NCBI GenBank assembly: GCA_965262235.1 | Contig: OZ253504.1 | Coordinates: forward strand, 3,361,684-3,425,683 | Source: Dehalococcoidia bacterium | Lineage (GTDB): Bacteria; Chloroflexota; Dehalococcoidia; Bin125 | DNA length: 64,000 nt | Direction of reading: 5' to 3' | Shown here: positions 11,209 to 45,091 of the stretch, one piece after another | Numbering within the stretch: the stretch's first letter is position 1 | Layout: each line of letters starts with the position of its first letter | Program-made: the position numbers and the translations under genes | Notes under the pieces: generated by a model | What the model saw: the letters and a program-made list of their open reading frames with translations, nothing else | What the model was told of the DNA's origin: nothing | Databases searched by the model: none

Positions 11209-11502
11209 TTAGCGGCGCGGCGCGTCTGAGCCACCGGCGACGGCGGGGACGATGCTGACTTCGTCGCCGTCGCCGATCGCAGTGGCCATGCCCTCGAGGA
11301 AGCGGATGTCCTCGCCGTTGACGAAGACGTTGACGAAGCGGCGCAGCTCGCCGCCGTCGTCGACGAGACGCTCGCCCATCCCGGGGTACTGGCGCTCGAG
11401 CTCGACGACGAGGTCGCCGAGCGATCCGGGTGCCCCGTCCACCACATCCTGGTCGCCGGTGAGGCCGCGCAGCGGCGTCGGGATTCGCACAACGATGCTC
11501 AT
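11209..11502 (-). CDS. MoaD/ThiS/CysO-family ubiquitin-like sulfur carrier protein with a C-terminal extension after Gly-Gly.
   Basis: 97 aa with a beta-grasp-like sequence ending ...VSIVPAVAGGSDAPRR. The GG is followed by 6 extra residues. Confidence 0.55.
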   Translation of the reverse strand: MSIVVRIPTPLRGLTGDQDVVDGAPGSLGDLVVELERQYPGMGERLVDDGGELRRFVNVFVNGEDIRFLEGMATAIGDGDEVSIVPAVAGGSDAPRR

Positions 11503-11632
11503 CTGGCCCAGCTCAACTCTCCGCGTCTGGCTGCGTCTGTCTCGTGCCGTCCTGTGCCCGCCCTGTTGAGGCGCTCCAGCGAGCCTATCGCGTCGCTGGG
11601 TTTAGGCGGGGTTTAGGCGGGGTTTGGGCGGG

Positions 11633-11899
11633 CTACGCCTCGTCCTTGGGATCGTCGGCCTCCCAGAGTTCCTGGCAGACGTGACAGACGAGGGCTGAGA
11701 TGACCTCAGTGCCCTCTTCGACCATCTCGTATTCAAGCTCGCACTCCTGGCCGCACTCGGGGCAGAGCGGGCGGAGGGCGTAGTCGAACTCGCCGCTGGT
11801 CAGGGAGCTGCGGTGCAGCAGCGTGTCGATATCGACCCACTCCTCGAAGGGGAGGGTGTGGACCTTGTAGCTGGCGAGGTCTCCGGGGGTGGCGCTCAC
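11633..11899 (-). CDS. Small Zn-ribbon protein (four-Cys).
   Basis: CPECG...CHVC pairs within an 88-aa acidic protein. No homology could be assigned from memory. Confidence 0.4.
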   Translation of the reverse strand: MSATPGDLASYKVHTLPFEEWVDIDTLLHRSSLTSGEFDYALRPLCPECGQECELEYEMVEEGTEVISALVCHVCQELWEADDPKDEA

Positions 11900-11948
11900 T
11901 GCGGCAGTCTATCGCGCGGCTGCGCGAGCGCAGTCGGGCGGCGCCGGG

Positions 11949-12212
11949 CTAGCGATGGCGGGCACGGTGGCCGCGCATCGAGCTGAGCGCCTGTTCGATG
12001 TCGCTCTCGCTGCTCTCGGAGACGGGCTCGTGGCCGCGCCGACCGCGGCCGCCGAAGATGTCTGAATTGTTGGTCCGCTCGAGATCGGGGAATGAGTTCG
12101 CGAAGCGGCGGCACTCGCCGCACTTCTGGCATTCGCCGGGGCTCGTGGACCCGTTCGGTGTGGCGAGCACCCAGTTATGCGCGCAGTGTCCCTCGGAGAC
12201 TTGCGTAACCAT
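11949..12212 (-). CDS. Small Cys-rich hypothetical protein.
   Basis: HCAHNW...CQKCGEC cluster in an 87-aa protein with a basic C-terminus. Confidence 0.35.
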   Translation of the reverse strand: MVTQVSEGHCAHNWVLATPNGSTSPGECQKCGECRRFANSFPDLERTNNSDIFGGRGRRGHEPVSESSESDIEQALSSMRGHRARHR

Positions 12213-12376: not shown

Positions 12377-12844
12377 CTACGACGCGGCTTCAGCGAGCGC
12401 CTGGACGTGTTTGAGCGAATCTTCGGCGTGCAGCGCGAAGTCGCGCGGGGCGTCGACGATGTGGCGGACGATGCCTTCGGCGTCGATCACGTAGGTCGTG
12501 CGGGCGGTGATCCCACGCTCTTCATTGAAGATGCCCCAGACCTTGCCGGTGCGGGCGAAGGGGAAGTCGCCGAGCAGCGGGAAGCTGAGGCCGAGCTCGC
12601 GTGCGTAGGCTCCGGCGGCGAAGGGTGAATCGACACTGACGCCCAGGACCTGGGCTCCAGCCGCCTCGAACTCGTCATGGAGTTCCTGGAAGCGGCTCAG
12701 TTCGTTCGTTCAACCACCGGTGAAGGCGAGCACGTACCAGGCGACGACGACGGTCCGGCCGCGGTACTCGCTGAGCTGATGCTCGCGGCGGTCGCCGTCC
12801 ATCAGCGTGAAATCGGGGGCCTGTTGTCCAACTTCCACGGCCAT
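12377..12844 (-). CDS. AhpE/Bcp-like 1-Cys peroxiredoxin with an in-frame TGA (candidate selenocysteine) at the peroxidatic position.
   Basis: I translated the whole frame by hand. It reads MAVEVGQQAPDFTLMDGD...VVVAWYVLAFTGG-[TGA at 12710-12712]-TNELSRFQELHDEFEAAGAQVLGVSVDSPFAAGAYARELGLSFPLLGDFPFARTGKVWGIFNEERGITARTTYVIDAEGIVRHIVDAPRDFALHAEDSLKHVQALAEAAS-TAG (12377). LAFTGG-U-TNEL aligns residue-for-residue with the AhpE motif LAFTGI-C-QGEL. The peroxiredoxin fold continues for 110 codons after the TGA with no frameshift. Confidence 0.65.
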
Positions 12845-12981
12845 GCGCCGCTCCCTTCGGTGCGGCGCGGGCGCGCCGCCGGGTCCTGCGGCCTGCATGG
12901 TACGCCTCCGCGGGAAGGTGCATGGGGCCGCATCGGGCGGCGCAACCAGGTGTCGGGAGGAGTGGATATAGACTCTGGGGT

Positions 12982-15779: not shown

Positions 15780-16960
15780 GGCGCTCGCCTCTCTTCCCCT
15801 GCCTTGCGGGGGGAGATGCCGAAGGCAGAGGGGGGTCAATCGGTTGGGGAGCGGGGGGGGGCTTGTATGTTCGCGCTGGCTCGGGAGCCGTTGGTGGCTG
15901 AGTCGAACCGGGGTGCGGCAGACCGATTCCCCCCTTCATTCTTGCGCCGCCTCCGTCATTCTTGCGCCGCCTCCGTCATTCCTGCGCCGCCTCCGTCATT
16001 CCTGCGCCGCCTCCGTCATTCTTGCGCCGCCTCCGTCATTCCTGCGCCGCCTCCGTCATTCTTGCGCCGCCTCCGTCATTCCTGCGCAGGCAGGAATCCA
16101 TGCGGTCTGTGGGGGTCAAGGGCACTCTCAAAGTTCGACGGCGCCCGATCACCCACGGCGCGCTGGGAGCTGTGGTGGGCCGTCGGGCGGATTGAGGCTC
16201 GTCGCACGGTTGGACGGTCGCATGGATTCCTGCCTCCGCAGGAATGACGGAAGGGGCGGATGTGACGGACAGGGCGGGTGTGACGGAAGGAGGCGAGTGT
16301 GAGGTACAGGGCGGGTGTGAAGGAAGGAGCGGGTGCGGCAGACCGGTGCCCCCTCTCCGTCATTCCTGCGCCGCCTCCGTCATTCCTGCGCAGGCAGGAA
16401 TCCATGCGGTCTGTGGGGGTCAAGGGCACTCCCAATGTTCGACGGCGTCCGATCACGCGCGGCGCGCTGGGAGCTGTGGTGGGCCGTCGGGCGGATTGAG
16501 GCTCGTCGCACGGTTGGGCGGTCGCATGGATTCCTGCCTGCGCAGGAATGACGGAAGGGGCAGGGGTGACGGACAGGGCGGGTGTGACTGAAGGGGCGGG
16601 TGTGACGGACAGGGCGGGTGTGAAGGAAGGAGCGGGCGCGGCAGACCGGTGCCCCCTCTCCGTCATTCCTGCGCCGCCTCCGTCATTCCTGCGCAGGCAG
16701 GAATCCATGCGGTCTGTGGGGGTCAAGGGCACTCCCAATGTTCGACGACGCCCGATCACGCGCGGCGCGCTGGGAGCTCTGGTGGGCCGTCGGGCGGATC
16801 GAGGCTCGTCGCACGGTTGGGCGGTCGCATGGATTCCTGCCTGCGCAGGAATGACGGAAGGGGCAGGGGTGACGGACAGGGCGGGTGTGACGGAAGGGGC
16901 GGGTGTGACGGACAGGGGCGGGTGTGAGGGACAGGGCGGGTGTGACGGACAGGGCGGGCG
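15780..16960. repeat. Nested tandem-repeat array built from hairpin repeat modules.
   Basis: 7 tandem copies of a 20-bp unit TCATTCYTGCGCCGCCTCCG at 15936-16075. Then 3 copies of a ~305-bp unit starting at 16076, 16380 and 16683. Each unit is bounded by the inverted hairpins TCATTCCTGCGCAGGCAGGAATCCATGCG and CGCATGGATTCCTGCCTGCGCAGGAATGACGGA. The units are separated by short ~20-bp GGGCGGGTGTGACGGACAG repeats. Confidence 0.8.
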
Positions 16961-17250
16961 TGACCAGCTGCTGCGCAGCGTGCCGGGCGTGGGTGAGCAG
17001 CTCTCACTGACGCTGCTGGCCGAGCTGCCGGAGCTGGGCCGGCTGAACCGTCGTCAGGTCGCCGCCCCTGGTCGGCGTGGCGCCCTTCAACCGCGACAGC
17101 GGCAGACGCACGACCTGGGGCGGGCGCGCCCCGCAAGCCCAAGAGGCTGGCCCTTACCGCCTGCATGTGCAAGCTGCTCGTGATCTTCAACGCGATGCTC
17201 AAACACCACACACCCTGGCGCGATTTGAGCCCCGACAGCGCCCACTGAGT
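16958..17250 (+). pseudogene. IS110-family transposase remnant: the C-terminal part only, with frameshifts.
   Basis: LLRSVPGVGEQLSLTLLAELPELGRLNRRQVAA, then ...VGVAPFNRDSGRRTTWGGRAP... in a second frame, then KRLALTACMCKLLVIFNAMLKHHTPW in a third frame. These match the conserved C-terminal block of IS110-family transposases. The 5' portion is replaced by the repeat array. Confidence 0.6.
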
Positions 17251-21133: not shown

Positions 21134-21979
21134 ATGACAACTGGCGACGGCTGGGCCCGACCTGAGCTGCTGTGCGACACCGACTGGCTCGCGGAGCACA
21201 TTGACGACGATGACGTGGTGGTGCTGGACTGCGATGTGCTGCCCTCGTATCAGCGGCTGCACATCCCCGGATCGATCTGGTCGCTCTCGCGCTACTGGAA
21301 GACCGACCCGAAGGACGATTCGCAGATCTACGGGATGGACGACCCGGCGCAGTTTGCGGCGCTGCTCTCCGGGATGGGGATCACGCCCGACACGCAGGTG
21401 GTCGCCTACGACGCGTCGGGCTGCCTCTACGCGGCGCGGGTGTGGTGGACGTTTGAGCGGTTCGGACACACCAACTTCAGGATTCTCGATGGCGGCCTGG
21501 ACAAGTGGTACGCGGAGGGCCGGCCGCTGGCCAACGACAACCCGCGAGCGGTGCGCAGCGAGTACCCGGCGCCGGCGGCGGCGCGCAGCGACTCGGTCTG
21601 CAGGCTCGACGACATCCCCGCGCTGATCGAGGACGAGAACCACGTCTTCTGGGACGTGCGCTCGGACGGCGAATGGACGGGCGCGAACAAGCGCGGCACG
21701 CAGCGCGGCGGGCGCATCCCGGGGGCGGTGCATCTGGAGTGGCTGCACACGCTGGAGTCGCCGGTGCGGACGCTGAAGTCGCCCGCGGTGCTGCGCGAGA
21801 TGCTCGGCGAGCTGGGGATCACGCCGGACAAGCGCGTGACGACGTATTGACAGGGCGGCATCCGTGCGGCGCACGGATACTTCCTGCTGCGACTGCTCGG
21901 CTGGGACCACGCGGCGAACTATGACGCCTCGTGGCACGAGTACGGCAACGCGCTCGAGCACCCGATGGAGACCGAGTAG
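21134..21979 (+). CDS. Two-domain rhodanese (thiosulfate/3-mercaptopyruvate sulfurtransferase-like) with an in-frame TGA (candidate selenocysteine) at the catalytic-Cys position.
   Basis: Annotated ORF 21134..21850 ends ...KRVTTY-TGA (21848-21850). The same frame continues QGGIRAAHGYFLLRLLGWDHAANYDASWHEYGNALEHPMETE-TAG (21977-21979). TY-U-QGGIRAAH aligns with the rhodanese active-site loop TY-C-R.G.R..H. The tail matches the conserved ...NYDGSWxEWG... C-terminus. A perfect 7-bp hairpin ATCCGTG-cggcg-CACGGAT lies at 21860-21878, 10 nt after the UGA. Confidence 0.65.
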
Positions 21980-22480: not shown

Positions 22481-23638
22481 CTAGCTGCGCTCGAGCGCGG
22501 CAACGAGCGCGGCTTCGATTTCTTCGATTGGGGCGAAGGCTTCGAAGCGGGCGACCACCTGGCCGTCACCGTTGACGATGAACGTCCATTCGTCGGTGTG
22601 GAGCCCCCACTCTTCGAGCAAGGGGGTCCGCTGGGGCGGCTCGCCGCGGCGCACGTTGAGCGGGTTTTCGTAGAGATCGACGTGGATGTAGCGAACGCCG
22701 GCGGGATACAGCAGGCGCAGCTCGCTGAGCACTTCGACCTGCGGGCCGCAGAACGCGTTGGTGCAGAAGCCGGGGCTGGCGAAGACGACGACGAACGGTT
22801 CGCCGTTCTCAAGCGCCTCGGCGATCGTGAGTTCGTAGAGCATCGCGTCGGGCTCGGCGGCGGTCGAGAGCTCCTCGGCGCCGGCGACATCGCGCAGGGT
22901 GCGGTTGATCGATGCCGGCGGCTGCTCGCCGACGGAGGGCGCGAGCGTGTTCTCGCGCACGGTGATCGCGATTGGGATGTCGATGAAGCCATCGAGGCTC
23001 GGGGTGCGGATGTTGATCACCCAGTCGCCGGCCTGGCCGAACGTCAGCTGCGCGACATGGAAGCCGCGGATGCCGTCGGGGAAGAGCGTGTAGGCGGCGA
23101 GCGCATCGCTGGCCGACTCAGGGCCGGTGGCGACGGGCCAGTAGCTGAGCGCCAACGCGGGGAACTCGACGAGGCCGTCGTCGCTCTCCACCACGACGCT
23201 GACGCGGTTTTGACCAAGGCCGAGGTCGGGCGTTCCAAGTGAGACGGAGAACCCCTCGGGGCTGAGGTAGACGGGGTAGCCGCCGTCGGTCAGCAGCGCC
23301 AGGCGCGGGCTGAGCTCGTCCACGGGGACGGGCTGCAGCGCGTTGACCGTGGAGACTGTCGCGTCGCCGGACTGCTCGGCGGCGGTCTGCGACTGGTCGG
23401 CCTGCGAGTCGTGCTGTTGGGCGGCCTGCTGCGCGGCGGGCTGGTCAGCGTCAGCCGCTTCGGCTGGGGTTTGCTGCTGTGCCTGGTCCTGGGACTGTTG
23501 GGCCTCCGGCGCGGCGGGAGCGGAGGAGGCCGCTTGTTGCGGATCATCGCCGCCGCTGCCGCAGGCGGCGAGCAGCAGGCCCACGACGAGCGCGCCACCG
23601 ATCAGCGCGCCACCAATCGGGAATCGCAGAGACATCAT
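22481..23638 (-). CDS. Thioredoxin-fold lipoprotein (TlpA/redoxin-like) with a Gln-rich linker.
   Basis: Lipobox LLLAACGSGG and a low-complexity AQQ-rich linker. C-terminal ...FVVVFASPGFCTNAFCGPQ (CxxxC in a thioredoxin-like beta-alpha context). Confidence 0.55.
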   Translation of the reverse strand: MMSLRFPIGGALIGGALVVGLLLAACGSGGDDPQQAASSAPAAPEAQQSQDQAQQQTPAEAADADQPAAQQAAQQHDSQADQSQTAAEQSGDATVSTVNALQPVPVDELSPRLALLTDGGYPVYLSPEGFSVSLGTPDLGLGQNRVSVVVESDDGLVEFPALALSYWPVATGPESASDALAAYTLFPDGIRGFHVAQLTFGQAGDWVINIRTPSLDGFIDIPIAITVRENTLAPSVGEQPPASINRTLRDVAGAEELSTAAEPDAMLYELTIAEALENGEPFVVVFASPGFCTNAFCGPQVEVLSELRLLYPAGVRYIHVDLYENPLNVRRGEPPQRTPLLEEWGLHTDEWTFIVNGDGQVVARFEAFAPIEEIEAALVAALERS

Positions 23639-25152
23639 TCACCGCCCAGGTAGGAACCGAACGTGAAGGCGAAGATCGCCAGTTGGTTGGAGTTCGAGCG
23701 CAGTTTCAGTTCGTGGGTGCTCCACTCGGGCAGCTTCACGAGGCGAAAGAGATCGTTCTTCGTGACGCGCACGAAGGAGCGCCCGTCGCCATCGAAACTG
23801 ATGTCGTCGCCCGCCTCGGCGGGCTCGAGCCAGCGGCCGTCCATCTCGATCAAGACATCGAAGGGCTGCGCGCCGTCTTCGAGTGTCAGCACGACGTTGA
23901 CGGTGCGCGCGGTGAACGTGAAGGCGAGGTAGTCCTCGAGATCGTTGGTGTTGCGCGCATGCACGATCGCTTCGGCGGTGTTGCGCCAGAGGCCCTGCAG
24001 GTACCACTTGTTGGCCTGCCGTCCGCTGGCGTCCTCGATGTCGGTGTACTGCTGGGCGACGTTGGAGGTGAGGTAGAACTCGGGCTGCGCGGCGTACTGG
24101 ATGCGGCCGTAGTTGCGGTCGGTGCCGCCGTAGAGCTCGCGGGTCTGGTTCAGCGAGACGGGGTCGCGCTGGGGGGCCACGGCGGAGGTGCCCTCCTCGA
24201 CGCCGCTCAGGTCCCAGCCGGCTTCCTCGAGGAGCTCGCGGATCGCCCGCTCGGTTTCGAGATAGTCGCCTTCGCCGAAGTGCTGGTAGCGGACGCTCAT
24301 GTCCGGGGCGATCAGATATTTGGCCGGCCAGTAGCGATTGTTGAAGGCGCGCCAAGTGCGGAAGTCGTTGTCCTGCGCGACCACGTACTCGATGCCGTAC
24401 TGCTCGATCGCTTGCTCGACGTTGGCGCGCACTTTCTCGAACTCGAACTCGGGCGAGTGCACGCCGATGATCGTGAGGCCGCGGTCGCCGTACTTCGCCT
24501 GCCATTCGACGAGGAAGGGCAGGGTGCGGATGCAGTTGACGCAGGTGTAAGTCCAGAAGTCGATCAGGACGACGTTGCCCTTGGCGAGCTCGAGCGCGAT
24601 TGAGGTCTCCTCGCCGTTGAGCCAGGCGTTGACGCCGCGCAGGTCGCTGACGGAGGCATCGGCGGCGATCTCTTCGGCACGCAATCGCAGTCGCTCGGCT
24701 TCGTCGGGGGCGACCTCCTGCTCGGCCTGCATTTCGGCCTCGTCTTCCGCCTGCGCTTCTGCTTGCTCTTCTTCCTGCAGATCGTCCTTGCTGGGCTGCG
24801 CGGCCTGCTGCTGGGTTCCGTCGTCGTCGTCGGAGTCCACGGTCGCGGCCGACTGCGCGTCGTCGTCTGCCGCGTCCTCTTGCTGCGCCGTCTGCTGCGC
24901 GGCTTGCTCCTGGCGGTCGTCGTCGGCCGGTTGCTCGGCGGCCGTTTGCTGCGACCGTTGTGCGGTTTGCTCCTGGCTGTCGGCGGCGGCCGGTTGCTCG
25001 GCGACCTGTTGTTGCTGCGTCTGCGCGGCCACCGCTGGCGTCGCGCTCTGCTGCGCCTGTTGATCGGCGTCCGACCCGCAGGCGGCCAGCGCGAGCGCGC
25101 CGATCACCAGTGCCGTTACGCCTGCAATCGCCCGAATCAGAAGTGGTTTCAT
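23635..25152 (-). CDS. DipZ C-terminal-domain-like thiol:disulfide oxidoreductase (thioredoxin-like CxxC plus a C-terminal beta domain).
   Basis: Lipoprotein signal LALAACGS, Gln/Asp-rich linker, then VVLIDFWTYTCVNCIRTLPFL...GVHSPEFEFEK, typical of the DipZ/ResA-like thioredoxin domain. It overlaps the downstream gene by 4 nt. Confidence 0.6.
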   Translation of the reverse strand: MKPLLIRAIAGVTALVIGALALAACGSDADQQAQQSATPAVAAQTQQQQVAEQPAAADSQEQTAQRSQQTAAEQPADDDRQEQAAQQTAQQEDAADDDAQSAATVDSDDDDGTQQQAAQPSKDDLQEEEQAEAQAEDEAEMQAEQEVAPDEAERLRLRAEEIAADASVSDLRGVNAWLNGEETSIALELAKGNVVLIDFWTYTCVNCIRTLPFLVEWQAKYGDRGLTIIGVHSPEFEFEKVRANVEQAIEQYGIEYVVAQDNDFRTWRAFNNRYWPAKYLIAPDMSVRYQHFGEGDYLETERAIRELLEEAGWDLSGVEEGTSAVAPQRDPVSLNQTRELYGGTDRNYGRIQYAAQPEFYLTSNVAQQYTDIEDASGRQANKWYLQGLWRNTAEAIVHARNTNDLEDYLAFTFTARTVNVVLTLEDGAQPFDVLIEMDGRWLEPAEAGDDISFDGDGRSFVRVTKNDLFRLVKLPEWSTHELKLRSNSNQLAIFAFTFGSYLGGE

Positions 25153-27866: not shown

Positions 27867-28310
27867 TCAGCGCTCCACCGTGACCTTCACATCGTTGACC
27901 TTGCGGGAGTTGACGATCAGGGCGATGTTCCAGTCGCCGGGCTGGGAAATGCTGAGCGGGATCGCGGCGACATCCCAGGGCGGGATGAGATCCTCGAAGC
28001 GGTAATCCTGGACCTCGAAGTAGGAGCGGCCGCCGACATCCAGCTCGAAGCGCACGAGCACGTGGTCGGCCTCGGTCGGGCTGGCGAGGTCGAGGCGCAC
28101 CCAGAACGGTTCGTCGACGCCGAGCTTGCGTTCGAGCGGGACGAGCACGCCTTTGTCGGGGTCCTGCAGGTCGAGCTCCAACGCCGCCTCCGCGCTGTGA
28201 CCGGCGCCCCAGGTTGAACAGCCCGTCAGTGCGAGTGCGGCGAGACATAGAATCAGCAGAACGCCCGGGGGCGAGTAGGTTGCGCGACACGCGGCGAGGA
28301 TTCGGTAGAT
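27867..28310 (-). CDS. Hypothetical lipoprotein.
   Basis: Signal plus lipobox LAALALTGCS. The start is uncertain. Confidence 0.4.
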   Translation of the reverse strand: MYRILAACRATYSPPGVLLILCLAALALTGCSTWGAGHSAEAALELDLQDPDKGVLVPLERKLGVDEPFWVRLDLASPTEADHVLVRFELDVGGRSYFEVQDYRFEDLIPPWDVAAIPLSISQPGDWNIALIVNSRKVNDVKVTVER

Positions 28311-28312
28311 CG

Positions 28313-29569
28313 ATGACACAATTCGACGATACCCGCAGGGCGCCGGACGATGAGGTCGTTGTCTCGATCCGCGGCCTCTACAAGATCTTCGGCGATGCTG
28401 CCGATGAGGCCATGGCGATGGCGCGCAATGGTGGCTCAAAGGAGCAGATTCAGGAGACGACGGGCGCTGTGGTTGCGCTGTCCGACGTGAGCTTCGATAT
28501 CCGGCGCGGCGAGATCTTCGTCGTCATGGGCCTCTCGGGCTGCGGCAAATCGACGTTGGTGCGCTGCATCAACCGATTGATCGACGCGACCGCGGGCGAG
28601 GTTTGGATCGGCGGTCGCGAAGTCACCGCGATGGATGACGCCGCGCTGCGCGAGCTGCGCCGTCGCGAAGTCGCGATGGTCTTCCAGCACTTCGGGCTGC
28701 TGCCGCACCGCAACGTGATCGAGAACGTCGCCTGGCCGCTCGAAGTGGCCGATGTCGACCGCCGCGAACGGCTGCGCCGCGCCGCCGAGTCGCTCGAGCT
28801 GGTTGGCCTCGGCGACTGGCACACATCGATGCCGCAGCAGCTCTCCGGCGGCATGAAGCAGCGCGTCGGCCTCGCCCGCGGGCTCGCGCTCAATACTCCG
28901 GTGCTGCTGATGGACGAGCCGTTCTCTGCGCTCGACCCGGTGATCCGCCGCGATCTGCAGGACGAGCTGTTGCAGCTACAGGAGTCGGTCCACAAGACGA
29001 TCGTGTTCATCACCCACGATCTCAACGAAGCCGTTCGCGTGGGCGACCGGATCGCGATCATGCGCGACGGGCTCGTGGTCCAGGAAGGCACGCCGAACGA
29101 GGTCGTGCTCTCGCCGGCGAATGCCTTCGTGCGCGAATTCACCCGGGATGTGCGCCTGCACGCGATGGTCAACGCCGGCTCGATCATGGACGAGCCCGCG
29201 CTGGCGCTGCCGGACTCGATGATGGCCTCGATCGCGGCCGCCGCGATGGAGTCGCAGCAGCAGACGCATTGCTGCGTCGTCGATGATCAGCGCCGTTACG
29301 TCGGCACGGCTTATCTCGCCAACGTGCTGACCAGAATCCGCACGGGCGACTGCGCGCTCGCTGCGGCGCCGCTGATCACCGACGGGCGAGTCCTGCAAGA
29401 CACCGTGCTCGATGATCTGGTCCCGGCCGGCCTCCGATCGCAGCACCCGTTGGTCGTGCTCGATGCAAACGGCGTGCTGGTCGGCGAAATCCCACTGGAC
29501 CGCCTGGCGGCCGCGATGGTCTCCGACGAGGCTGCGGTCGCGGCGGCCGGCGAAGGCGCGGAAGGGTAG
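28313..29569 (+). CDS. proV: Glycine betaine/proline ABC transporter ATP-binding protein with tandem C-terminal CBS domains.
   Basis: Walker A GLSGCGKST, signature LSGGMKQRVGLARGL, Walker B LLMDEPFSALD, then a CBS pair. This is the OpuAA/ProV architecture. Confidence 0.85.
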   Translation: MTQFDDTRRAPDDEVVVSIRGLYKIFGDAADEAMAMARNGGSKEQIQETTGAVVALSDVSFDIRRGEIFVVMGLSGCGKSTLVRCINRLIDATAGEVWIGGREVTAMDDAALRELRRREVAMVFQHFGLLPHRNVIENVAWPLEVADVDRRERLRRAAESLELVGLGDWHTSMPQQLSGGMKQRVGLARGLALNTPVLLMDEPFSALDPVIRRDLQDELLQLQESVHKTIVFITHDLNEAVRVGDRIAIMRDGLVVQEGTPNEVVLSPANAFVREFTRDVRLHAMVNAGSIMDEPALALPDSMMASIAAAAMESQQQTHCCVVDDQRRYVGTAYLANVLTRIRTGDCALAAAPLITDGRVLQDTVLDDLVPAGLRSQHPLVVLDANGVLVGEIPLDRLAAAMVSDEAAVAAAGEGAEG

Positions 29570-29575
29570 TCGCGA

Positions 29576-30583
29576 GTGCCGCCGACACCGCTGGCGCTGC
29601 TGCGCGCGACCGTGCGCCTCTTCGTCGGTTCCGAAGGCTCGCAGCCGCTGCCGGCCAGATGGTGGATCGCGCCGTTCATCGTCGTGCTGATGGCGGTCGC
29701 GTTCGTCCTGTCCAGCCTCGCCGCGGGCGAGGAATTTCCCCTCGACATCGGACGCGCCGTGGGCCTCTTCATCGATGAGATCGTGGACTGGCTGACGGAG
29801 AACGTCTCCTGGTTCTTCCAGGCGATCAAGGATGTGCTGACCTGGTTCCTGGTCGCGCTGGAAGACGCGCTGTTCTGGATGCCCTGGCCCGCGTTCATCG
29901 TCACCGTCACGCTGACCGCATGGTTGTTGGTCAGCTTTCGGATGGCGATCTTTTCGGTCGCCGCGCTCCTCCTGGTGGGCGCGTTCGGACTCTGGGAGAG
30001 CACGATGGAGACGGTCGCGCTGATCGTCGTCACTGTGGCGCTGTCGATCCTGGTCGCCGTGCCGATGGGCGTCTGGGCGTCGCAGAACGACCGGCTCGAC
30101 ACCCTGGTACGCCCGATCCTCGACGCGATGCAGACGATGCCGAGCTTCGTCTACCTCGTGCCCGCGATCGCGTTCTTCAGCCTCGGCAACGTCCCGGCGG
30201 TCATCGCCACCCTGATCTACGCCGTGCCGCCCGGCGTGCGCCTGACCAACCTGGGCATCCGCCAGCTGCCGGCGGAGACGGTGGAGGCGGCCGAATCGTT
30301 CGGGACCACCCCCATGCAGCTGCTGCTGAAGGTCAAGATTCCGCTGGCGATCCCGACGATCATGGCGGGCGTCAACCAGACCACGTTGATGGCGCTCTCG
30401 ATGGTCGTGATCGCCTCGCTGGTCGGGGCCGGCGGGCTCGGCCAGGACGTCAATCGTGCGCTGGGTCGGATCGAACCGGGCAACGCCTTCCTGGCCGGGC
30501 TCGGGATCGTGTTCCTGGCGATCATCATCGACCGCATCACCCAGGCGCTGGCGCGCCGCCAGCAGGACGCGGTCGGCGGCTGA
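29576..30583 (+). CDS. proW: Glycine betaine/proline ABC transporter permease.
   Basis: ProW/OpuAB family; EAA-like region ...ESFGTTPMQLLLKVKIPLAIPTIMAGVNQT.... Confidence 0.85.
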   Translation: MPPTPLALLRATVRLFVGSEGSQPLPARWWIAPFIVVLMAVAFVLSSLAAGEEFPLDIGRAVGLFIDEIVDWLTENVSWFFQAIKDVLTWFLVALEDALFWMPWPAFIVTVTLTAWLLVSFRMAIFSVAALLLVGAFGLWESTMETVALIVVTVALSILVAVPMGVWASQNDRLDTLVRPILDAMQTMPSFVYLVPAIAFFSLGNVPAVIATLIYAVPPGVRLTNLGIRQLPAETVEAAESFGTTPMQLLLKVKIPLAIPTIMAGVNQTTLMALSMVVIASLVGAGGLGQDVNRALGRIEPGNAFLAGLGIVFLAIIIDRITQALARRQQDAVGG

Positions 30584-30819
30584 TGCAGCGACGACCCAAC
30601 CCACTGCAGCTCGGGACCGAGCGGCTGGCGCGCCTCCGCGGCCTCGCCGCGATCAGCGTGGCCGTGCTGTGCTGGGTCGTGACCGCGTTCGCGCTGATGG
30701 ACAGCGAACTCTCGCCGGGCGCGTTCCTCGGCGGCGCGAAGGCGCTGTTCGTTGTGCTGGCGGTGCTGATGACGCTCGTTGCGGGCTTCAGAGCGCGCGT
30801 ATTCCGGCGGCGCGGATAG
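30584..30819 (+). CDS. Small two-TM membrane protein (hypothetical).
   Basis: Overlaps the proW stop (ATGA). Two hydrophobic helices. Confidence 0.3.
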
Positions 30820-30964
30820 CTCGCGCGACAGTTCACTTGTGGCGCGCCGAATCGGGTCTCAGCGTGGCGCGGGTGTGGCGCGGGTTCGGTCTTGGACACA
30901 CGCTCCGCAGCGGTTATGGTGGCGCGGTCAGTCCGAACGGGCTGCGCGGGGATTAGGGGCGAGT

Positions 30965-32215
30965 ATGCGATTCGGATCAGGACAAGGGAAACGGCTGGGC
31001 CTGCGGATCACGGCGCTGCTCGCGCTGTGCGCCGTGGTTTGGGTTGCGTTGGCGGCCTGTTCGTCGGACGACGACCAGCCGCAGCAACAGGCGGCGCCGG
31101 TCGCCGCCGCGGAACAGCAGCAGCAGCAAGAGCAACCGGCCCCGGCCGTGCAGCAGCAAGAGCAGCAGCAAGATCAGCAGCAAGCGGTCGCGCAGCAGCA
31201 GGAGCAACAGGAGCAGCAGGCGCCGCCGCCGGCCGCGCAGCAGCAGCAGCAGCAAGAGCAACAGCAGGCGGTCGCGCAGCAGCAGCAACAGGCTGAACCG
31301 CAGGCTGAGGTCGAGGCGGCCGTCAAAGAGGTCATCGTCTTCTCCAACCTCAACTGGCTCTCGGCCGAAGTCCAGACTCGGATCGTCTCCTTCATCGTCG
31401 AGCACGGCTACGGCTACCCGACCGACCTGATCGACGGCGACACGGTCTCGCTCTGGCAGGGCCTGATCAACGACGACACGCAGGTGACGCTGGAGATCTG
31501 GCCGTCGCAGCAGAAGTGGATCGATGACCTCGAACCGGGCGTGATTGAACTGCTCGGCGACAGCCTGGACGAGAACTGGGAGGGCTGGGTCATCCCGCAG
31601 TACATCAAGGATGAGAATCCCGGGCTCGTCTCGGTCACCGACCTGCCTGACTACCAGGATCTGTTCGTGACGGCCGACTCGCGCGGCAAGGCGCGCTTGG
31701 TGGGCTGTATCGCCGGCTGGATGTGCGAGGAGACCAACGCCAACAAGATCGTCGCCTACGGGCTGGAAGACGTCATTGACCTGATCGACCCGGGCAGCGG
31801 CGCGGCGCTGTTCGCCGACCTCGAAGCCGCCTACGCACGCGGCGACGCGTGGCTGGGCTACATATGGGGTCCGACACAGCCAACCGCGACACTCGACCTC
31901 TACCGGCTGGAGGAGCCCGAGTGGACCCAGGACTGCTGGGACGGCGATCAGGGCTGCGCGTATCCGAGCTCCGAAGTGCGGATCGCGGTCAATACGAGCC
32001 TGGTCGATCGCGCGCCCGAGGTGATCACGTTCCTACGCGCCTGGGACTACTCAGCCGCGCAACAGGTCGCCACCGAGATTTGGATGGGCGAGAACAACGA
32101 GACACCCGACGCGGGCGGGATCTGGTACCTACGCAACAATCGCGATGTCTGGAGCCAGTTCATCCCCGCCGATGTCGCCGAGCGCGTCGACGCGGCCCTG
32201 GCCGAGGAGAGCTAG
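30965..32215 (+). CDS. proX: Glycine betaine ABC transporter substrate-binding lipoprotein.
   Basis: Lipobox LAACSS, a long Gln-rich linker, then an OpuAC/ProX-type binding domain (...FSNLNWLSAEVQ...GWVIPQY...WLGYIWGP...). Confidence 0.8.
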   Translation: MRFGSGQGKRLGLRITALLALCAVVWVALAACSSDDDQPQQQAAPVAAAEQQQQQEQPAPAVQQQEQQQDQQQAVAQQQEQQEQQAPPPAAQQQQQQEQQQAVAQQQQQAEPQAEVEAAVKEVIVFSNLNWLSAEVQTRIVSFIVEHGYGYPTDLIDGDTVSLWQGLINDDTQVTLEIWPSQQKWIDDLEPGVIELLGDSLDENWEGWVIPQYIKDENPGLVSVTDLPDYQDLFVTADSRGKARLVGCIAGWMCEETNANKIVAYGLEDVIDLIDPGSGAALFADLEAAYARGDAWLGYIWGPTQPTATLDLYRLEEPEWTQDCWDGDQGCAYPSSEVRIAVNTSLVDRAPEVITFLRAWDYSAAQQVATEIWMGENNETPDAGGIWYLRNNRDVWSQFIPADVAERVDAALAEES

Positions 32216-36793: not shown

Positions 36794-38170
36794 ATGGTCC
36801 GCCTCTCCGACCTCCACCCCGAAGAAGCGGAGCATCTGAGGAGCTGGCCGCCGCTTCAGATCGAGCCGGGGGAGTGGATCACGCCCAAGCCGCTGCGCGA
36901 GTCGACGATCGCTCTGATCACCACCGCGGGCCTGCATCGGCGCGATGACGTGCCGTTCGCGTCGGGCGCGGTGGACTATCGGATCATCCCCGGCGACGCT
37001 GACTTCGCGGATGTCATCTCCTCGCACTTGAGTTCCAACTGGGACCGCTCGGCGCTCGCGCAGGATCTGAACGTCGTGCTGCCGATCGAGCGCCTCAGGG
37101 AGTTGGCTGCGGCGGGCGAGATCGGCGGCGTGGCACGCTGGCACTACTCGTTCATGGGCGGGGTCCCGCGCGCCGATCGGCTGGAGCCGTACGCCCGCGA
37201 GGTGGCGGGCCTGCTCAAGCGCGACGGCGTCGACGCCGCCGTGCTCATACCCGTTTGACCGGCCTGCACGCGCGCCGTCGGCGCGCTCGGCCACTACATC
37301 GAGCGTGAGGGCGTGGCCACGACCAGCATCTCGCTGGTCCGCGAGCACAGCGAATACATGAAGCCGCCGCGCGCGCTGTGGGTGCCGTTCTACCTCGGCC
37401 GCCCGTTCGGCGTGCCCGACGACCCCGACTTCCAGCGCGACGTGCTGCGCGCCGCGCTCGACCTGCTACCGACGCTGACCGAGCACGGCATCGTCGACTA
37501 TCCAGTCGAGGCGCCCGACGACTCGTTCTCCCACACGTGGGCCTGCCCGGTCTCGTTCGAGGCGTCGGACGCCGACTCGTTGGGCGCCCGCCTGCGCGGC
37601 GAGGCGCAGCGGCTCGCGCCCTGGTGGCGCGAGACGCACCGGGCTCGCGGACGCACCCTGGTGGGTGCGAGCGCGCCGCTGCCAGACGGACCAGACCGCG
37701 AAGTGACCGTGCCGCAGCACGTCGACACGCTGGCCGCCGCGCTTGTGGACGTCGCGGAGGGCGCGCCGCTCGACACGCCGCCTGTGATCGAGCGGCCGGC
37801 CGGCTCGAACCCCGCCGAAGCGGCAAATGAGCTTGCCTGGTCGCACCCGATGCCCTTCCTGCTGCGTCACCTCGTGCAGGACCTGCGCTGCTTCTATCAG
37901 GAGGCCGCGGCGGGGCAGCCGGGCGCGCAGGCGCCGTCGCATCGCGCGTTGAACGAATGGATCTTTGGCGAGACCGTGCTCGGCGAGGCGATCATCGAGA
38001 TGGGCCGCCGGCTCACCGAGGCCGGCGATCCACGCCTGCGCGCCTTGCGCTTCTGGTCGATCCCCGAAGGCTTCTGGCCCGATGACGACGAGGTTGTCAC
38101 CGCTGCGAGCATGACCGACTCACTCGCGCGCGCCGACGCCGCCAACAAGCTGTTCGCGCCGCGCCAATAG
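36794..38170 (+). CDS. Glycine/betaine/sarcosine/D-proline reductase family 'selenoprotein B' (GrdB-like) homolog with an in-frame TGA (candidate selenocysteine) in a U-x-x-C motif.
   Basis: Track ORFs 36794..37258 and 37313..38170 are in the same frame and separated only by the TGA at 37256-37258. Read-through gives ...DGVDAAVLIPV-U-PACTRAVGALGHYIEREGVATTSISLVREHSEYMKPPRALWVPFYLGRPFG.... The U-P-A-C-T motif resembles the UxxC redox motif of GrdB/PrdB-family proteins. A GC-rich hairpin (GGCC..GCGCGCC-GTC-GGCGCGC..GGCC) lies at 37261-37292. Confidence 0.55.
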
Positions 38171-39291: not shown

Positions 39292-39825
39292 ATGGCGACG
39301 ACATCACGAGCCAAGGCGAAGCGCAATGCGCGGGCCGCGCGGCGCGCGGAACAGACCGACCCCGAGCGGGCGAACAACCGCGTGCTCGCGCGCAACCGCC
39401 GCGCGACCTGGCAATACGAGATCACGCAGCGGATCGAGGCCGGGATCGAGCTGCGCGGCAGCGAGATCAAATCGCTGCGCATGGGCCGCGGCTCGATCGC
39501 TGAGGCCTACTGCCGCCCGCGCGGCGGACAGCTGTGGCTGATCGGCGCGCACATCGCGCGCTACGAGCCGGCCGGCGAGCAGAACCACGAGCTGACCCGC
39601 GACCGTCGGCTGCTGGTCCATCGCCGTGAAATCCACCAGCTGGAGGCGGCGTTCGAGCAGCGCCGGCTGACCCTGGTGCCGCTGCGCCTGTACCTGAAGC
39701 ACGGCCTCGTCAAGCTGGAGATCGGCGTGGCCCGCGGCAAGCGCGAGCACGAGAAGCGCCAGCGCATTCGCGAGCGCGAGACCAACCGCGAAATCGCCCG
39801 CGTCCTCCGCCAAAACAACGTCTGA
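39292..39825 (+). CDS. smpB: SsrA-binding protein SmpB.
   Basis: ...NRVLARNRRATWQYEITQRIEAGIELRGSEIKSLR...LLVHRREI...LKHGLVKLEIGVARGKREHEKR is canonical SmpB with a basic N-terminal extension. Confidence 0.85.
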   Translation: MATTSRAKAKRNARAARRAEQTDPERANNRVLARNRRATWQYEITQRIEAGIELRGSEIKSLRMGRGSIAEAYCRPRGGQLWLIGAHIARYEPAGEQNHELTRDRRLLVHRREIHQLEAAFEQRRLTLVPLRLYLKHGLVKLEIGVARGKREHEKRQRIRERETNREIARVLRQNNV

Positions 39826-39837
39826 GCCGCGCTGGCG

Positions 39838-40030
39838 GCCCGCAGTCCGCGCATGCCGACACGGGCCGCGTCAAGCGTCGCACGGTCGTCGATCCCGCGA
39901 CGCCCGAGGACGTGGATGCGATGCGGAATCTGATCGAGGGCACCGACATATTCTCGCAGGCGTGCAGCGCGGAGAGTCTCGCGCGCCACGGGGCAGACAC
40001 GCTAGAGTTCACAGAACTTCCCTCAGGAGC
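39838..40030 (+). pseudogene. Fragment of a family III CoA-transferase paralog (internal ~60 codons only).
   Basis: PQSAHADTGRVKRRTVVDPATPEDVDAMRNLIEGTDIFSQACSAESLARHG is clearly homologous to QSAQADTGHGKRRAFVDLETPEGVDAMWHLIEGADVFSQSYRAESLARRG of the intact gene at 43126-44562. No start codon and no flanking domains. Confidence 0.5.
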
Positions 40031-40036
40031 GGCCTC

Positions 40037-41194
40037 ATGGCGAGTCCAGCCACACATGCCACACGTGGCGAAGAACCATCGTTCACCCCCGAGTTCCTGC
40101 CCGTTGGGGAGCTTCACCTTGACGGTAAGAATCCGCGCATCCAGCAGGTCGGAGTGGACCTCGACCAGGAGCGCATTCTCAAGATCCTTTGGGAGGAGTA
40201 CTCCGTAGACGAAGTGGCGCTGTCCATTGCGCAAAACGGCTTCTTCCCTCACGAGCCCTTGTTCGCCATCGAGGAGGGTGGCAGGCTCGTGGTCGTAGAG
40301 GGCAATCGCAGGCTCGCGGCTGTCCGATTACTCCGTGAGCCCGACCTCCGGGAACGCCTTCGTGGAGAAGCGTTGCCCACGATATCCGTAGAAGCGATCG
40401 CCAAGCTCGACTTCGTTCCTGTCATCCGCTGCAAGCGCGAAGGGATTTGGCAATACATCGGCTTCAAGCACGTGAACGGACCACAGGCATGGACATCCCT
40501 TGCCAAAGCCGAGTACGTCGCTTGGGTGAAGAACGAAATCGGCACTTCTCTTGAGGACATCGCCCGCACCATCGGTGACTACCACTCGACAGTCACGCGG
40601 CTATACCGAGCATACATGGCCCTGAAGCAGGCAGAAGATGAGGGCGTCTACGATCGCAAGTGGCGGACTCGGAAACACTTCTCATTCTCACACCTCTACA
40701 CCGGCCTGGACTACCAAGGCATACGGGATTTCACCCGTATCGCCGATCTCGACCCGCCCAAGGCGAGGCCGATCCCCAAGAGCAGACTCAAGGAGTTTGG
40801 TGAGCTGTGCGTCTGGCTGTGGGGGGACACGACACATAACACAGTTCCTCTAATCAAGAGCCAGAATCCCGACCTCCGCGATCTTGATGGAGCCCTCCAG
40901 AAGAAGGCCGGGCTAAGTGCTCTCCGCGCTGGCTATGGCATCTCTGTCGCGGTCGATATCGCCCGTGGCGACACCGCACTCTTCCGGGAGGCGTTGCTCA
41001 AGTCAAAGCAGTCGCTCCAGAATGCCCGCGCGAAGGTAGCAACTGGATTTGAGGGCGAAAAGGATTTGTCAAGGGAGATGGAAGAAATCCTCGTCATCGC
41101 CGATGCCCTTGACGACGACATGCGGACGATCGCGATAGACCCCCTACAGAGGCAGCGAGATAGGCGACGACGCCGGAGAGCCCAGAGGACATAG
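40037..41194 (+). CDS. ParB/Srx-fold (ParB-like nuclease domain, DUF262-like) protein.
   Basis: N-terminal ...LHLDGKNPRIQ...GRLVVVEGNRRLAAVRLL matches the ParB N-terminal domain motif. SD-like AGGAGC sits 7 nt upstream of the ATG. This is the first gene of a low-GC three-gene block. Confidence 0.55.
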   Translation: MASPATHATRGEEPSFTPEFLPVGELHLDGKNPRIQQVGVDLDQERILKILWEEYSVDEVALSIAQNGFFPHEPLFAIEEGGRLVVVEGNRRLAAVRLLREPDLRERLRGEALPTISVEAIAKLDFVPVIRCKREGIWQYIGFKHVNGPQAWTSLAKAEYVAWVKNEIGTSLEDIARTIGDYHSTVTRLYRAYMALKQAEDEGVYDRKWRTRKHFSFSHLYTGLDYQGIRDFTRIADLDPPKARPIPKSRLKEFGELCVWLWGDTTHNTVPLIKSQNPDLRDLDGALQKKAGLSALRAGYGISVAVDIARGDTALFREALLKSKQSLQNARAKVATGFEGEKDLSREMEEILVIADALDDDMRTIAIDPLQRQRDRRRRRRAQRT

Positions 41195-41200
41195 CGGCGG

Positions 41201-42181
41201 ATGGTAGGTCTCATCGTTCCGCCGGCGTCCGCCGACGCAACGGAACACGCTGACTGGCTTGAGTTGACGGCGGCGGTCACATCTGACGCCACTCGTTCAA
41301 GGCAGCATCTAATCGCAGCGATCCGAAGAACGGGCTCAATCGATGGGACTCCCTCCACCGAGGACCTAGACGATGAACCGCTTGATGAGCTGGTTGAGCG
41401 GGAGGATGAAGAGCTTGAGGGAATCGCCGACGCCGCCTTCGAACAACTGGCGAGGCGCGAGAGCTACCTCGGCGCGCACTACCCGTTTGCCGTTGGCGGG
41501 ACGGTGCAAGCCAAGGATGGTGCTCTGGCCTCGCCCTATCTCTTCCTGACGGCGCTGACGAAGTTCAACCCGACGCTGAGGGCATCGGAAGAGAGCGGCG
41601 CCTCGCTCTTTGAACGCGTTAGCAGGACTGCTCTGGTGGAATACCTCGGCGGCGTAGAAACCGTGCGCTCCTACGACTTTGGGTTTCCCCGACGCGACGG
41701 CCCGAAGGCGTTCTACGATGCTCTTGAGGCTCTGTGCCAGCAAATGGGTGAGGGGCTTGGCTGCAAGGTGAAAAGGCCCAAGACAGCCAGCGTCAAGGAC
41801 GCGAAGCTTGACCTCGTGGCATGGCTACCGTTCGAGGATGGCCGTGACAATCAACTTAGCGTATTCGGACAGTGTGCAGCGGGGATGGACTGGTCTGAGA
41901 AGGTCAATGAGCTTCAGCCAGTTGACTTTTGCCGCATATGGTTGAAGGAATCCCCGGCGATGAGTCCCCTTCTCGCTTTCTTCGTGCCCCGGCAGGTTGA
42001 GGAACGCCGCTGGTTTCAGGTTAGCGTTGGGGAGCGACGCATTTTCTTCGACCGGCTCAGGATCGCCCGCTTTCTCGGCAGGCTCGACAAGGACCTCGCC
42101 AAGCGCTGCGAGTCGTGGACGGCGGCAGCTATCGCAGTGGGTGACGCGGCCGGCGCCCCCGTTGCTGACGCGACATCCTAG
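41201..42181 (+). CDS. Hypothetical protein, middle gene of the island.
   Basis: 326 aa, tightly coupled between the ParB-like and Dam genes. The N-terminus is acidic. I recognise no motif with confidence. Confidence 0.4.
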   Translation: MVGLIVPPASADATEHADWLELTAAVTSDATRSRQHLIAAIRRTGSIDGTPSTEDLDDEPLDELVEREDEELEGIADAAFEQLARRESYLGAHYPFAVGGTVQAKDGALASPYLFLTALTKFNPTLRASEESGASLFERVSRTALVEYLGGVETVRSYDFGFPRRDGPKAFYDALEALCQQMGEGLGCKVKRPKTASVKDAKLDLVAWLPFEDGRDNQLSVFGQCAAGMDWSEKVNELQPVDFCRIWLKESPAMSPLLAFFVPRQVEERRWFQVSVGERRIFFDRLRIARFLGRLDKDLAKRCESWTAAAIAVGDAAGAPVADATS

Positions 42182-42183
42182 GC

Positions 42184-43038
42184 ATGAGGTTCGCGAGCCC
42201 GCTTCGCTACCCAGGCGGGAAGGCAGCCATGACGGGCATCCTGCGCACCATCAGGACCTTAAACGGCTTCAACGGTCATGCTGTGGCCGAACCGTTCGCG
42301 GGTGGGGCTGGTGCCGCGCTTACGCTTCTCTATTCTCGGGAGACGCATAAGGTACACATAAACGATCTCGATCCCGCCATCCACGCCTTTTGGTTCTCGG
42401 CGGTTCACGACAGCGAGGCGTTGCTTAATCTCCTCGATCAGACGCCGGTGTCCGTCGAGGAGTGGAAGCGTTGGAGGGATGTCTACCGAAGTGGCCGCGC
42501 CTCGCCTCTTGAACTGGGGTTTGCCACTTTCTACCTCAACCGCTGCAATCGGTCAGGAATCATTCAGAACGGCGGCGTCATAGGTGGGATCGAGCAGAGG
42601 GGGCGTTGGAAAATCGATGCCCGGTTCAACAAGCTTGCCTTGAGGCAGCGGCTTGAACGAATCGCGGAGGAGTGCGACCGAATAGCGGTGTCGAACCTTG
42701 ATGGCATCGACTTCATCGACACGTTAGATGCGGAATCGACGCTCTACTTTGTGGACCCGCCCTACTTCAGAAAAGGGCCCCTGTTGTATCTGAATAGTCT
42801 TAGTGATGACTATCACTCCAGTCTCGCTGAGAAGCTCCAGAGCATTGAGGAAGCGGCATGGGTTCTGACCTACGACGACTGTTCTGAGATCCGCGAGCTG
42901 TATGGAGAGTGGGCGGCGATTCATCCTTTCTCGCTTCGCTACTCGGCACGTGAGCGGCAGCAGGGACGGGAGGTCTTGATCACGCCTCGGTGGATGCACT
43001 TGCCAGAGGCCGTGAGTGAGGCTGCGGTGAGCTGGTGA
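42184..43038 (+). CDS. DNA adenine methyltransferase (Dam/D12-class N6-adenine MTase).
   Basis: N-terminal LRYPGGK (AdoMet motif I), Glu/Asp motif II, and catalytic DPPY (FVDPPYF) motif IV in Dam order. Its ATG immediately follows the upstream stop. Confidence 0.8.
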   Translation: MRFASPLRYPGGKAAMTGILRTIRTLNGFNGHAVAEPFAGGAGAALTLLYSRETHKVHINDLDPAIHAFWFSAVHDSEALLNLLDQTPVSVEEWKRWRDVYRSGRASPLELGFATFYLNRCNRSGIIQNGGVIGGIEQRGRWKIDARFNKLALRQRLERIAEECDRIAVSNLDGIDFIDTLDAESTLYFVDPPYFRKGPLLYLNSLSDDYHSSLAEKLQSIEEAAWVLTYDDCSEIRELYGEWAAIHPFSLRYSARERQQGREVLITPRWMHLPEAVSEAAVSW

Positions 43039-44732: not shown

Positions 44733-45091
44733 GGGGACGAAAGGGATCGACAGCGGCCGACTGATCTGTGGCTGCGCGCCGAGGTGGCGTTCCTCGCTAA
44801 TCCGCGCCAACCTTTCCTTAACTGGCGAAACCAAGGAATTCGCACTCGCCGCTTAACCGCGGCGACGTCGCCTCCCGACTGCCGCCGAACCGGTGGGAGT
44901 GCGGCGCCATCAGTTTGGCCGCTCGCCGCGGGATGACGGGACCGCAGCGCTAAGACCATTCCGGATCACCTGGTCGTAACGGCTGGCCGACGCGCCGGCG
45001 ACCGGGGAAAACTTAAGCGACGGCTACGCGCGTAGAGGCTGCGGGGAGCGACCGACTGGACGGGGAGTTCGATTCTCCCCCGTCTCCACCA
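44733..45091 (+). ncRNA. ssrA: tmRNA (ssrA).
   Basis: 5' GGGGACGAAAGGGATCGACAGCGG... The 3' tRNA-like end is GGACGGGGAGTTCGATTCTCCCCCGTCTCCACCA, giving T-arm GGGAG/CTCCC and acceptor 5'-GGGGACG pairing 3'-CGTCTCC, then ACCA. The internal tag ORF ends ...GETKEFALAA-TAA (44854-44856), the canonical ...ALAA degradation tag. Confidence 0.7.

Follow-up and report, generated by a model that had tools for sequence, protein, structure and literature searches.

A probable selenocysteine-encoding AhpE-like peroxiredoxin gene in sponge-associated Dehalococcoidia

What does the in-frame UGA of a peroxiredoxin gene stand for in a Dehalococcoidia bacterium: selenocysteine (Sec), another amino acid, or the end of a split or broken gene? 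The gene lies on the minus strand at 12377..12844 of a 64,000-nucleotide (nt) stretch of contig OZ253504.1 (assembly GCA_965262235.1, forward-strand positions 3,361,684 to 3,425,683), which we call the window and whose numbering is used throughout. A first-pass annotation, made from the sequence alone, had read it as a candidate Sec-peroxiredoxin of the AhpE-like, 1-Cys type, with UGA replacing the peroxidatic Cys. Comparison with relatives supports that candidacy through a TGA kept in every orthologue, selection acting on both of its flanks, and the pairing of the UGA with Cys in other homologues. It makes it very probable that this is a bona fide Sec-encoding AhpE-like peroxiredoxin gene, carried by sponge-associated Dehalococcoidia.

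The gene and its in-frame UGA

The predicted gene comprises 154 residues plus the stop, from an ATG at 12844..12842 to a TAG at 12379..12377, and the orthologues share its start Met. The minus-strand frame from 12844 to 12377 has 155 codons and reads MAVEVGQQAPDFTLMDGDRREHQLSEYRGRTVVVAWYVLAFTGG, the internal stop, and then TNELSRFQELHDEF, ending in AEAAS before the terminator. This translation agrees exactly with the one first proposed, including the TAG at 12377. The sole internal stop is the TGA at 12712..12710, codon 45, which leaves an upstream piece of 44 residues. A Shine-Dalgarno-like AAGGGAG, read from the sequence, is found at 12851..12857 on the minus strand, 6 nt before the ATG, and its placement supports initiation upstream of the TGA and not after it. 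There is no ATG downstream of the TGA in the window's frame.

If codon 45 is read as Cys, the product spans the whole Pfam AhpC-TSA domain (PF00578; profile positions 1-124 of 124, E = 2.3e-35). Its best relative in the PDB is Mycobacterium tuberculosis AhpE (Rv2238c, E = 2e-23), and the alignment sets LAFTGG-[U]-TNEL against LAFTGI-C-QGEL, with the TGA at the peroxidatic Cys, as the first-pass annotation had drawn it. The 154-residue product contains no Cys codon at all, so the 1-Cys designation (no resolving Cys) also holds. The UGA (12710..12712, minus strand), a predicted Sec, closes a TGGU sequence that corresponds to the TxxU motif (T42-G-G-U45). It is preceded by the active-site motif V38-L-A-F-T42 (12719..12733, minus strand), which continues as G43-G44-U45; Thr42 is retained, and Val38 stands in place of the Pro of PxxxTxxC/U. 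The conserved peroxiredoxin active-site Arg is encoded by codon 115 (12500..12502, minus strand), an invariant column in two homologue alignments.

The top seven PDB matches are all AhpE-type, with E values of 2e-23 to 2e-22. Six are M. tuberculosis Rv2238c/MT2298 entries, and the seventh, 4xih, is labelled just "AhpC/TSA family protein." The next matches are BCP-like (3e-19) and Prx2 (3e-19) proteins, and the closest named full-length homologues are actinobacterial proteins called "alkyl hydroperoxide reductase E" or "mycoredoxin-dependent peroxiredoxin." By these sequence comparisons the predicted protein belongs to the AhpE-like subfamily rather than to Prx1/AhpC, BCP/PrxQ or Tpx.

We scanned one genome per GTDB species for homologues and obtained 41 Dehalococcoidia/Chloroflexota loci (L001-L041) with 73-97% protein identity, which together with the window make up 42 aligned clade sequences. 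One contig from ENA (L056, 57% identity) and three JGI metagenome contigs (L057-L059) bring the number of orthologous loci to 45. TGA stands at codon 45 in 45/45 orthologues, that is, in 42/42 clade sequences as well as in L056 and L057-L059. None of the 41 GTDB orthologues has a second stop or an indel over 447 nt. Cys occupies this position in homologues with no more than 48% identity, whose sources are Anaerolineaceae, Planctomycetota, Acidobacteriota, and Actinomycetota. In 29 full-length homologues the residue opposite codon 45 is an invariant Cys, and it is Cys also in L042-L050 and L060-L068. No Sec-to-Cys revertant was seen among the orthologues in the genome or metagenome scans. Such a recurrence of TGA at one codon in 45 independent assemblies is, judged from these alignments, far beyond chance.

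The ratio of nonsynonymous to synonymous substitution rates (dN/dS, Nei-Gojobori method) is 0.086 at codons 1-44 (dS 0.78) and 0.111 at codons 46-149 (dS 0.95). Because this ratio is about 0.1 on each side of the TGA, both halves are, on the comparative evidence, translated in one frame under purifying selection. The internal stop itself, and nothing more, would suggest a pseudogene or an assembly or sequencing error, and we give this explanation practically no weight. It is refuted by the comparative data: the same TGA recurs in the 45 assemblies, which come from different projects, dN/dS is low on both sides, and synteny is kept in 39-41 of the 42 loci. The first-pass annotation had pointed to frameshifted copies in relatives as the sign of a decayed gene. 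What the 45 orthologues have instead is one in-frame TGA each.

The TGA could also be a true stop, in which case the locus would encode a 44-residue peptide and/or a separately initiated C-terminal fragment of 105 to 110 residues. Every public gene call has such a form. In a protein database of 5.8 billion clusters, the entries at 58% identity or more are all fragments of 85-112 residues, covering 47-69% of the query, and the L056 gene is annotated as two, of 46 and 105 residues. However, the fragments would lack the catalytic residue and each would be an incomplete thioredoxin fold. The C-terminal one would have no ATG in the window, where only the upstream ATG has a Shine-Dalgarno sequence before it, and the frame continues unbroken across the TGA in every species. 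Moreover, the stop is TGA in all orthologues, although only half of the window's open reading frames (ORFs) use TGA. A split gene is therefore hardly credible, and the fragment entries are best read, from the comparison, as the footprint of gene callers halting at the UGA of a single Sec-encoding gene.

RNA structure downstream of the UGA

Two hairpins follow the UGA on the minus strand. Hairpin 1 (12659..12697), as found by per-sequence folds, starts 12 nt past the UGA, and its loop starts 30 nt past it. It has a 15-bp bulged stem, composed of a lower stem of 9 bp (12697-12689 with 12667-12659), a 3-nt bulge, CAG (12688-12686), and an upper stem of 6 bp (12685-12680 with 12673-12668), and an apical loop, CAUGAC (12679-12674). 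The minimum free energy (MFE) of the 76-nt fragment is -34.1 kcal/mol (z = -2.8). Hairpin 2, GCCCAG-GUC-CUGGGC (12641..12655), is located 3 nt past hairpin 1 and consists of a 6-bp stem and a G-U-N triloop; this loop starts 60 nt past the UGA. The hairpin of the first-pass annotation is thus only partly the one that we find. Its 3' arm, GAGUUCG, stands, and on the 5' side it pairs with the nearer GAACUC (12685..12680) in the MFE fold and in all 42 sequences, not with the originally proposed CGAACUG beside the UGA; the helix runs on into the 15-bp stem (12697..12659), and hairpin 2 had gone unmentioned.

Each of the 42 sequences, when folded singly, forms hairpin 1 at the same place, and both hairpins are also present in L056. 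In the larger clade, the 3' strand of hairpin 1 has moved by one codon (EFQEAG versus EFEAAG), and the bulge becomes a 1x1 A.A internal loop while the helix is kept. A two-hairpin model of clade B (34 sequences) has standard pairs in 97.3% of its cells, with 96% for hairpin 1 and 100% for hairpin 2. An RNAalifold consensus on all 42 sequences, comprising a 5-bp core and a UGA-sequestering helix, was discarded as an artefact of the one-codon register shift between the two clades, which was resolved by the per-sequence folds and a clade-specific count of pairs.

Averaged over the 42 genes, the most stable 60-nt stretch of the gene begins 10-13 nt past the UGA, at -33.7 kcal/mol versus about -17 kcal/mol typically. 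In the same sequences, wobble positions are invariant in 7 of the 20 degenerate codons in the hairpins versus 1 of 100 elsewhere (Fisher p = 9e-6). The stem wobbles of hairpin 2 (GCC, CAG, CUG, GGC) are fixed, and that of the loop codon GUN is free (H = 1.61 bits). Cys-form homologues do not have hairpin 1, and the nearest of them, L042, has a degraded hairpin 2. The only invariant wobble outside the hairpins belongs to the Gly44 codon, GGT (12713..12715, minus strand; 42/42), directly before the UGA. It is always GGT, yet GGC is the commoner Gly codon nearby. This may be a UGA-context effect, or it may reflect alternative pairing with 12697..12691; RNAalifold gives an alternative helix of GGYGGUU with AGCCGCU, in which columns 1-7 pair with columns 22-28.

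An Rfam search of the element returned no family, only chance matches at E values of 0.8 or more. The published model of the bacterial Sec insertion sequence (bSECIS) has a loop of 3-9 nt with a G in its first two positions, 16-37 nt between UGA and loop, and an MFE of -7.5 kcal/mol or lower (bSECISearch model, summarized in PMC13188914). Like bSECIS elements, the Escherichia coli fdhF element among them, the structure described here is a stable stem-loop within the coding sequence right after the UGA. The loop spacing of hairpin 1, at 30 nt, is in range, the G-U-N of hairpin 2 fits G[G/U], and the MFE is far below -7.5 kcal/mol. In contrast to canonical elements, neither hairpin fits the model in every respect, and the hairpin 1 loop has no early G in about half of the species. 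The first-pass annotation had called the structure less canonical than the hairpin of a rhodanese gene in the same window (described below), and had made the case hinge on a SECIS-competent structure. A conserved structure does follow the UGA; it falls outside the bSECIS model, and the rhodanese element is canonical. Among accepted bacterial selenoprotein genes, about 13% likewise do not fit the model (PMC13188914; BSepDB).

The apical loop of hairpin 1 is variable in sequence, and hairpin 2 is similar to the canonical elements found in the rhodanese gene and in a PrdB-like gene of the window. One tentative reading, which we hold at low confidence, is that the two hairpins form a new SECIS architecture, in which hairpin 2 would bind SelB and hairpin 1 would act as a rigid folded spacer at the mouth of the mRNA channel. 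The 39 nt of hairpin 1 would then bring hairpin 2, 60 nt away, into working range. In favor of this arrangement, the stem wobbles of hairpin 2 are invariant with its loop free, and the hairpin 1 loop varies.

Decoding of the UGA

Several observations weigh against Sec at this position. Sec insertion at UGA 45 is inferred, not measured, and the same is true of the SelB-binding hairpin, the enzyme chemistry, and the reductant. Compensatory covariation is absent from the hairpins, with 0 double changes in the alignment, and shuffling the columns yields scores no lower than that of the real alignment. Synonymous recoding gives z scores of only -0.2 to -2.9; much of hairpin 1 is thus encoded by the peptide itself, and MFE alone is weak evidence. 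As to the bSECIS model, hairpin 1 fails the G rule, since CAUGAC has no G at loop positions 1-2, and the spacing of hairpin 2, whose GUC loop fits, exceeds the modeled range. Neither tRNA-Sec nor selA, selB or selD was found within the window or in the 42 flanks; for chromosomes of about 3 Mb, this lack is uninformative. Finally, a near-universal active-site Pro has been replaced by Val in this clade. Val38 is found in the window, in all 41 GTDB orthologues, and in L057-L059, and Pro is at least 90% conserved at this motif position among the 29 Cys homologues. We considered the change as a Sec-linked adaptation and rejected this, since L056, a Sec form at greater distance, has the Pro. As far as the sequences go, the substitution is specific to the clade and is no requirement of Sec use.

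The machinery that the window lacks has been recorded in a close relative. One of the genomes that carry an orthologue (L019), MPNM00000000, belongs to "Chloroflexi bacterium bin125," which the sponge Aplysina aerophoba hosts as a symbiont. It was scored SelA = 1, SelB = 1, and SelD = 1 (Slaby et al. 2017, Table S4), and SelA and SelB are enriched in sponge symbionts (Slaby et al. 2017). The first-pass annotation had tied its proposal to Sec machinery in the genome, and these scores in bin125 speak for it. In BSepDB, the ten bacteria richest in selenoproteins include two Dehalococcoidia metagenome-assembled genomes, with 49 and 46 selenoprotein genes.

The window also contains two other genes with an in-frame UGA. 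A two-domain rhodanese/sulfurtransferase gene (21134..21979, plus strand; PF00581, E = 2.6e-32) has TGA at the catalytic Cys (21848-21850), in VTTY-U-QGGIRAAH, followed by a hairpin of 8 bp with a GGC triloop that begins 9 nt past the TGA. Both TGA and hairpin are kept in 34/34 copies (the window's own, 32 GTDB-species loci, and L056). The second gene (36794..38170, plus strand) encodes a PrdB/GRDB-like protein (PF07355, E = 3e-9) with TGA at 37256-37258 in IPV-U-PAC-T, a UxxC motif. Its score of 115 bits against the NCBIfam model of D-proline reductase PrdB is below the cut-off, and some 300 residues after the TGA have no assigned function. Its hairpin has 7 bp and a GUC triloop 18 nt past the TGA. 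The triloops of the two genes, GGC and GUC at 17-18 nt past the UGA, are canonical. Rhodanese-related sulfurtransferases (UxxG) and PrdB/GRDB-type proteins (UxxC) are both listed selenoprotein families (PMC13188914). A search for further in-frame-TGA genes in the 20-kb flanks recovered only the rhodanese as a recurrent gene, the other candidates being adjacent genes or noise. A glycine-betaine ABC (ATP-binding cassette) transporter locus (28214-32212) lies close to the PrdB/GRDB-like gene. Taken together, the two additional UGA genes, the Sel genes of bin125, and the BSepDB counts support a Sec trait in the lineage, as read from gene content.

UGA 45 might instead be read as Cys, Trp or Gly, either by near-cognate decoding or through a change of code in the lineage, and the product would then be a thiol or inactive peroxiredoxin that uses no selenium. 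In favor of this, both hairpins depart from the canonical bSECIS as published. However, UGA is an ordinary stop here: of the 54 ORFs predicted in the window, 27 terminate with TGA, among them those for an amidase, SmpB, and MutS, each complete by Pfam, and 27 with TAG or TAA. The use of TGA as a stop discounts a reassigned genetic code. If Cys were meant, TGC or TGT would be expected at least once, but there is none in 45 orthologues at a dS of about 0.8-1.0. In addition, the in-frame UGAs occur solely at the redox-active Cys of three families with known Sec forms, and a genome with an orthologue has SelA, SelB, and SelD. We consider decoding as a standard amino acid to be very unlikely.

For the preferred reading, a Sec-peroxiredoxin, we propose that UGA 45 would be recoded in the way usual for bacteria. 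SelA and SelD would make the Sec-tRNA(Sec), and SelB, tethered to the two-hairpin element right after the UGA, would deliver it. With the UGA in the A site, hairpin 1 would lie just outside the ribosomal mRNA channel, since its helix begins 12 nt past the UGA. The selenolate of Sec45, activated by Thr42 and Arg115, would attack the peroxide and become a selenenic acid. An external thiol partner would be needed to reduce this intermediate, as the protein offers no other (resolving) Cys. The mechanism follows established peroxiredoxin chemistry.

Relatives, gene neighborhood, and implications

The predicted enzyme resembles M. tuberculosis AhpE (Rv2238c; PDB 1XXU, 1XVW, 4X0X; 153 residues) in length, in the LAFTG-x-C/U-x-x-EL motif, in its single catalytic chalcogen, and in the Thr and Arg. 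It differs from AhpE in that the latter has Cys and Pro, and the identity is only about 40%. The reductant of AhpE is mycoredoxin-1/mycothiol, a system that is not known in Chloroflexota. No recognizable redoxin was found among the conserved neighbors of the peroxiredoxin gene, which are two Cys-rich proteins, a ThiS-like protein, and a DUF3090 protein.

A Prx selenoprotein family with the PF00578 domain and the motif PxxxTxxU has been described (PMC13188914). A 2006 survey of sequenced bacteria found 12 Sec-peroxiredoxins and inferred five Cys-to-Sec events (Zhang et al. 2006, PMC1794560), and 253 Sec-peroxiredoxin sequences were reported in metagenomes of Global Ocean Sampling (GOS), the family being common in marine microbes (PMC2398784). 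Our clade shares with this family the Pfam domain, Sec in place of the peroxidatic Cys, and the T-G-G-U sequence, and in both the Cys homologues are far more numerous. It differs in having VxxxTxxU instead of PxxxTxxU and in being AhpE-like, with no second Cys. A Sec-peroxiredoxin has been established experimentally in Eubacterium acidaminophilum (PrxU; Sohling et al. 2001, cited in PMC13188914), where Sec occupies the peroxidatic position as predicted here, and PrxU is the only Sec-peroxiredoxin type known to have been verified by experiment. The protein of the window is not an orthologue of PrxU: it scores 78.9 bits against the PrxU model (NF040737) versus a cut-off of 270, and the model has 233 positions versus 154 residues. 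No NCBIfam model reached its cut-off with the peroxiredoxin product. PrxU itself is of the Prx1/AhpC type and comes from an anaerobic Firmicute.

BSepDB was built by screening 64,762 species genomes by homology for known families, and the clade may already be catalogued there. On sequence grounds, the gene adds a member, new or newly noticed, to the established and abundant Sec-peroxiredoxin family and does not represent a new kind. Elsewhere in the window, at 23638-25152 on the minus strand, is a gene for a 505-residue protein with AhpC-TSA/Redoxin and Thioredoxin_10 domains and no in-frame TGA, apparently a second, larger thiol-peroxidase-like or thiol-disulfide oxidoreductase gene.

In 39-41 of the 42 loci, the peroxiredoxin gene shares its direction with the genes for the two small Cys-rich proteins, the ThiS-like protein, and an enoyl-CoA hydratase. 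Divergent genes for the DUF3090 protein and a major facilitator superfamily (MFS) transporter lie upstream of it. The genomes are closely related, and synteny alone is therefore no proof of a functional link. The genes downstream of the peroxiredoxin gene at 11209-12212 on the minus strand keep synteny with it in 40-41 of the 42 loci. The two Cys-rich proteins encoded there have 87 and 88 residues with CxxC-type motifs and no significant Pfam match. They are followed by the ThiS/MoaD-like protein, which has a C-terminal Gly-Gly with a 6-residue extension (AVAGG-SDAPRR). In L056, the genes for the Sec-rhodanese, the DUF3090 protein, and the Sec-peroxiredoxin directly adjoin one another.

Farther along the window, 15936-16964 is a noncoding, repeat-rich intergenic stretch with a 20-nt unit repeated 7.6 times (TCATTCCTGCGCCGCCTCCG), a 303-nt unit repeated 2.9 times, and arrays of an 18-nt unit (TGACGGAAGGGGCGGGTG). 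Three ORFs at 39962-43038 on the plus strand have a third-position GC of 0.70 versus 0.83-0.94 in their neighbors. One encodes a D12-class N6-adenine DNA methyltransferase, and two have no Pfam match. They are located between smpB (39292-39825) and the transfer-messenger RNA gene (44733-45091) and are possibly a horizontally acquired restriction-modification or defense island.

In all database entries found, the peroxiredoxin gene is annotated as a truncated "redoxin domain" fragment. The Sec-rhodanese and PrdB-like genes are likewise misannotated, and because all three are affected, the selenoproteomes of sponge-symbiont Dehalococcoidia would appear to be undercalled by standard pipelines. 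The two-hairpin element, which fails the SECIS model yet is clearly selected, offers a test case for the 13% or so of genes that have no canonical SECIS. Through this clade the Sec-peroxiredoxins would gain an enzyme of AhpE type that has one catalytic residue, and would gain it in aerobic, host-associated bacteria, for which peroxide stress is plausible. The clade also lends itself to natural comparisons of U with C and of V with P in peroxiredoxin enzymology. If the assignment is true, a Sec active site tolerates the loss of a near-universal Pro (VxxxTxxU).

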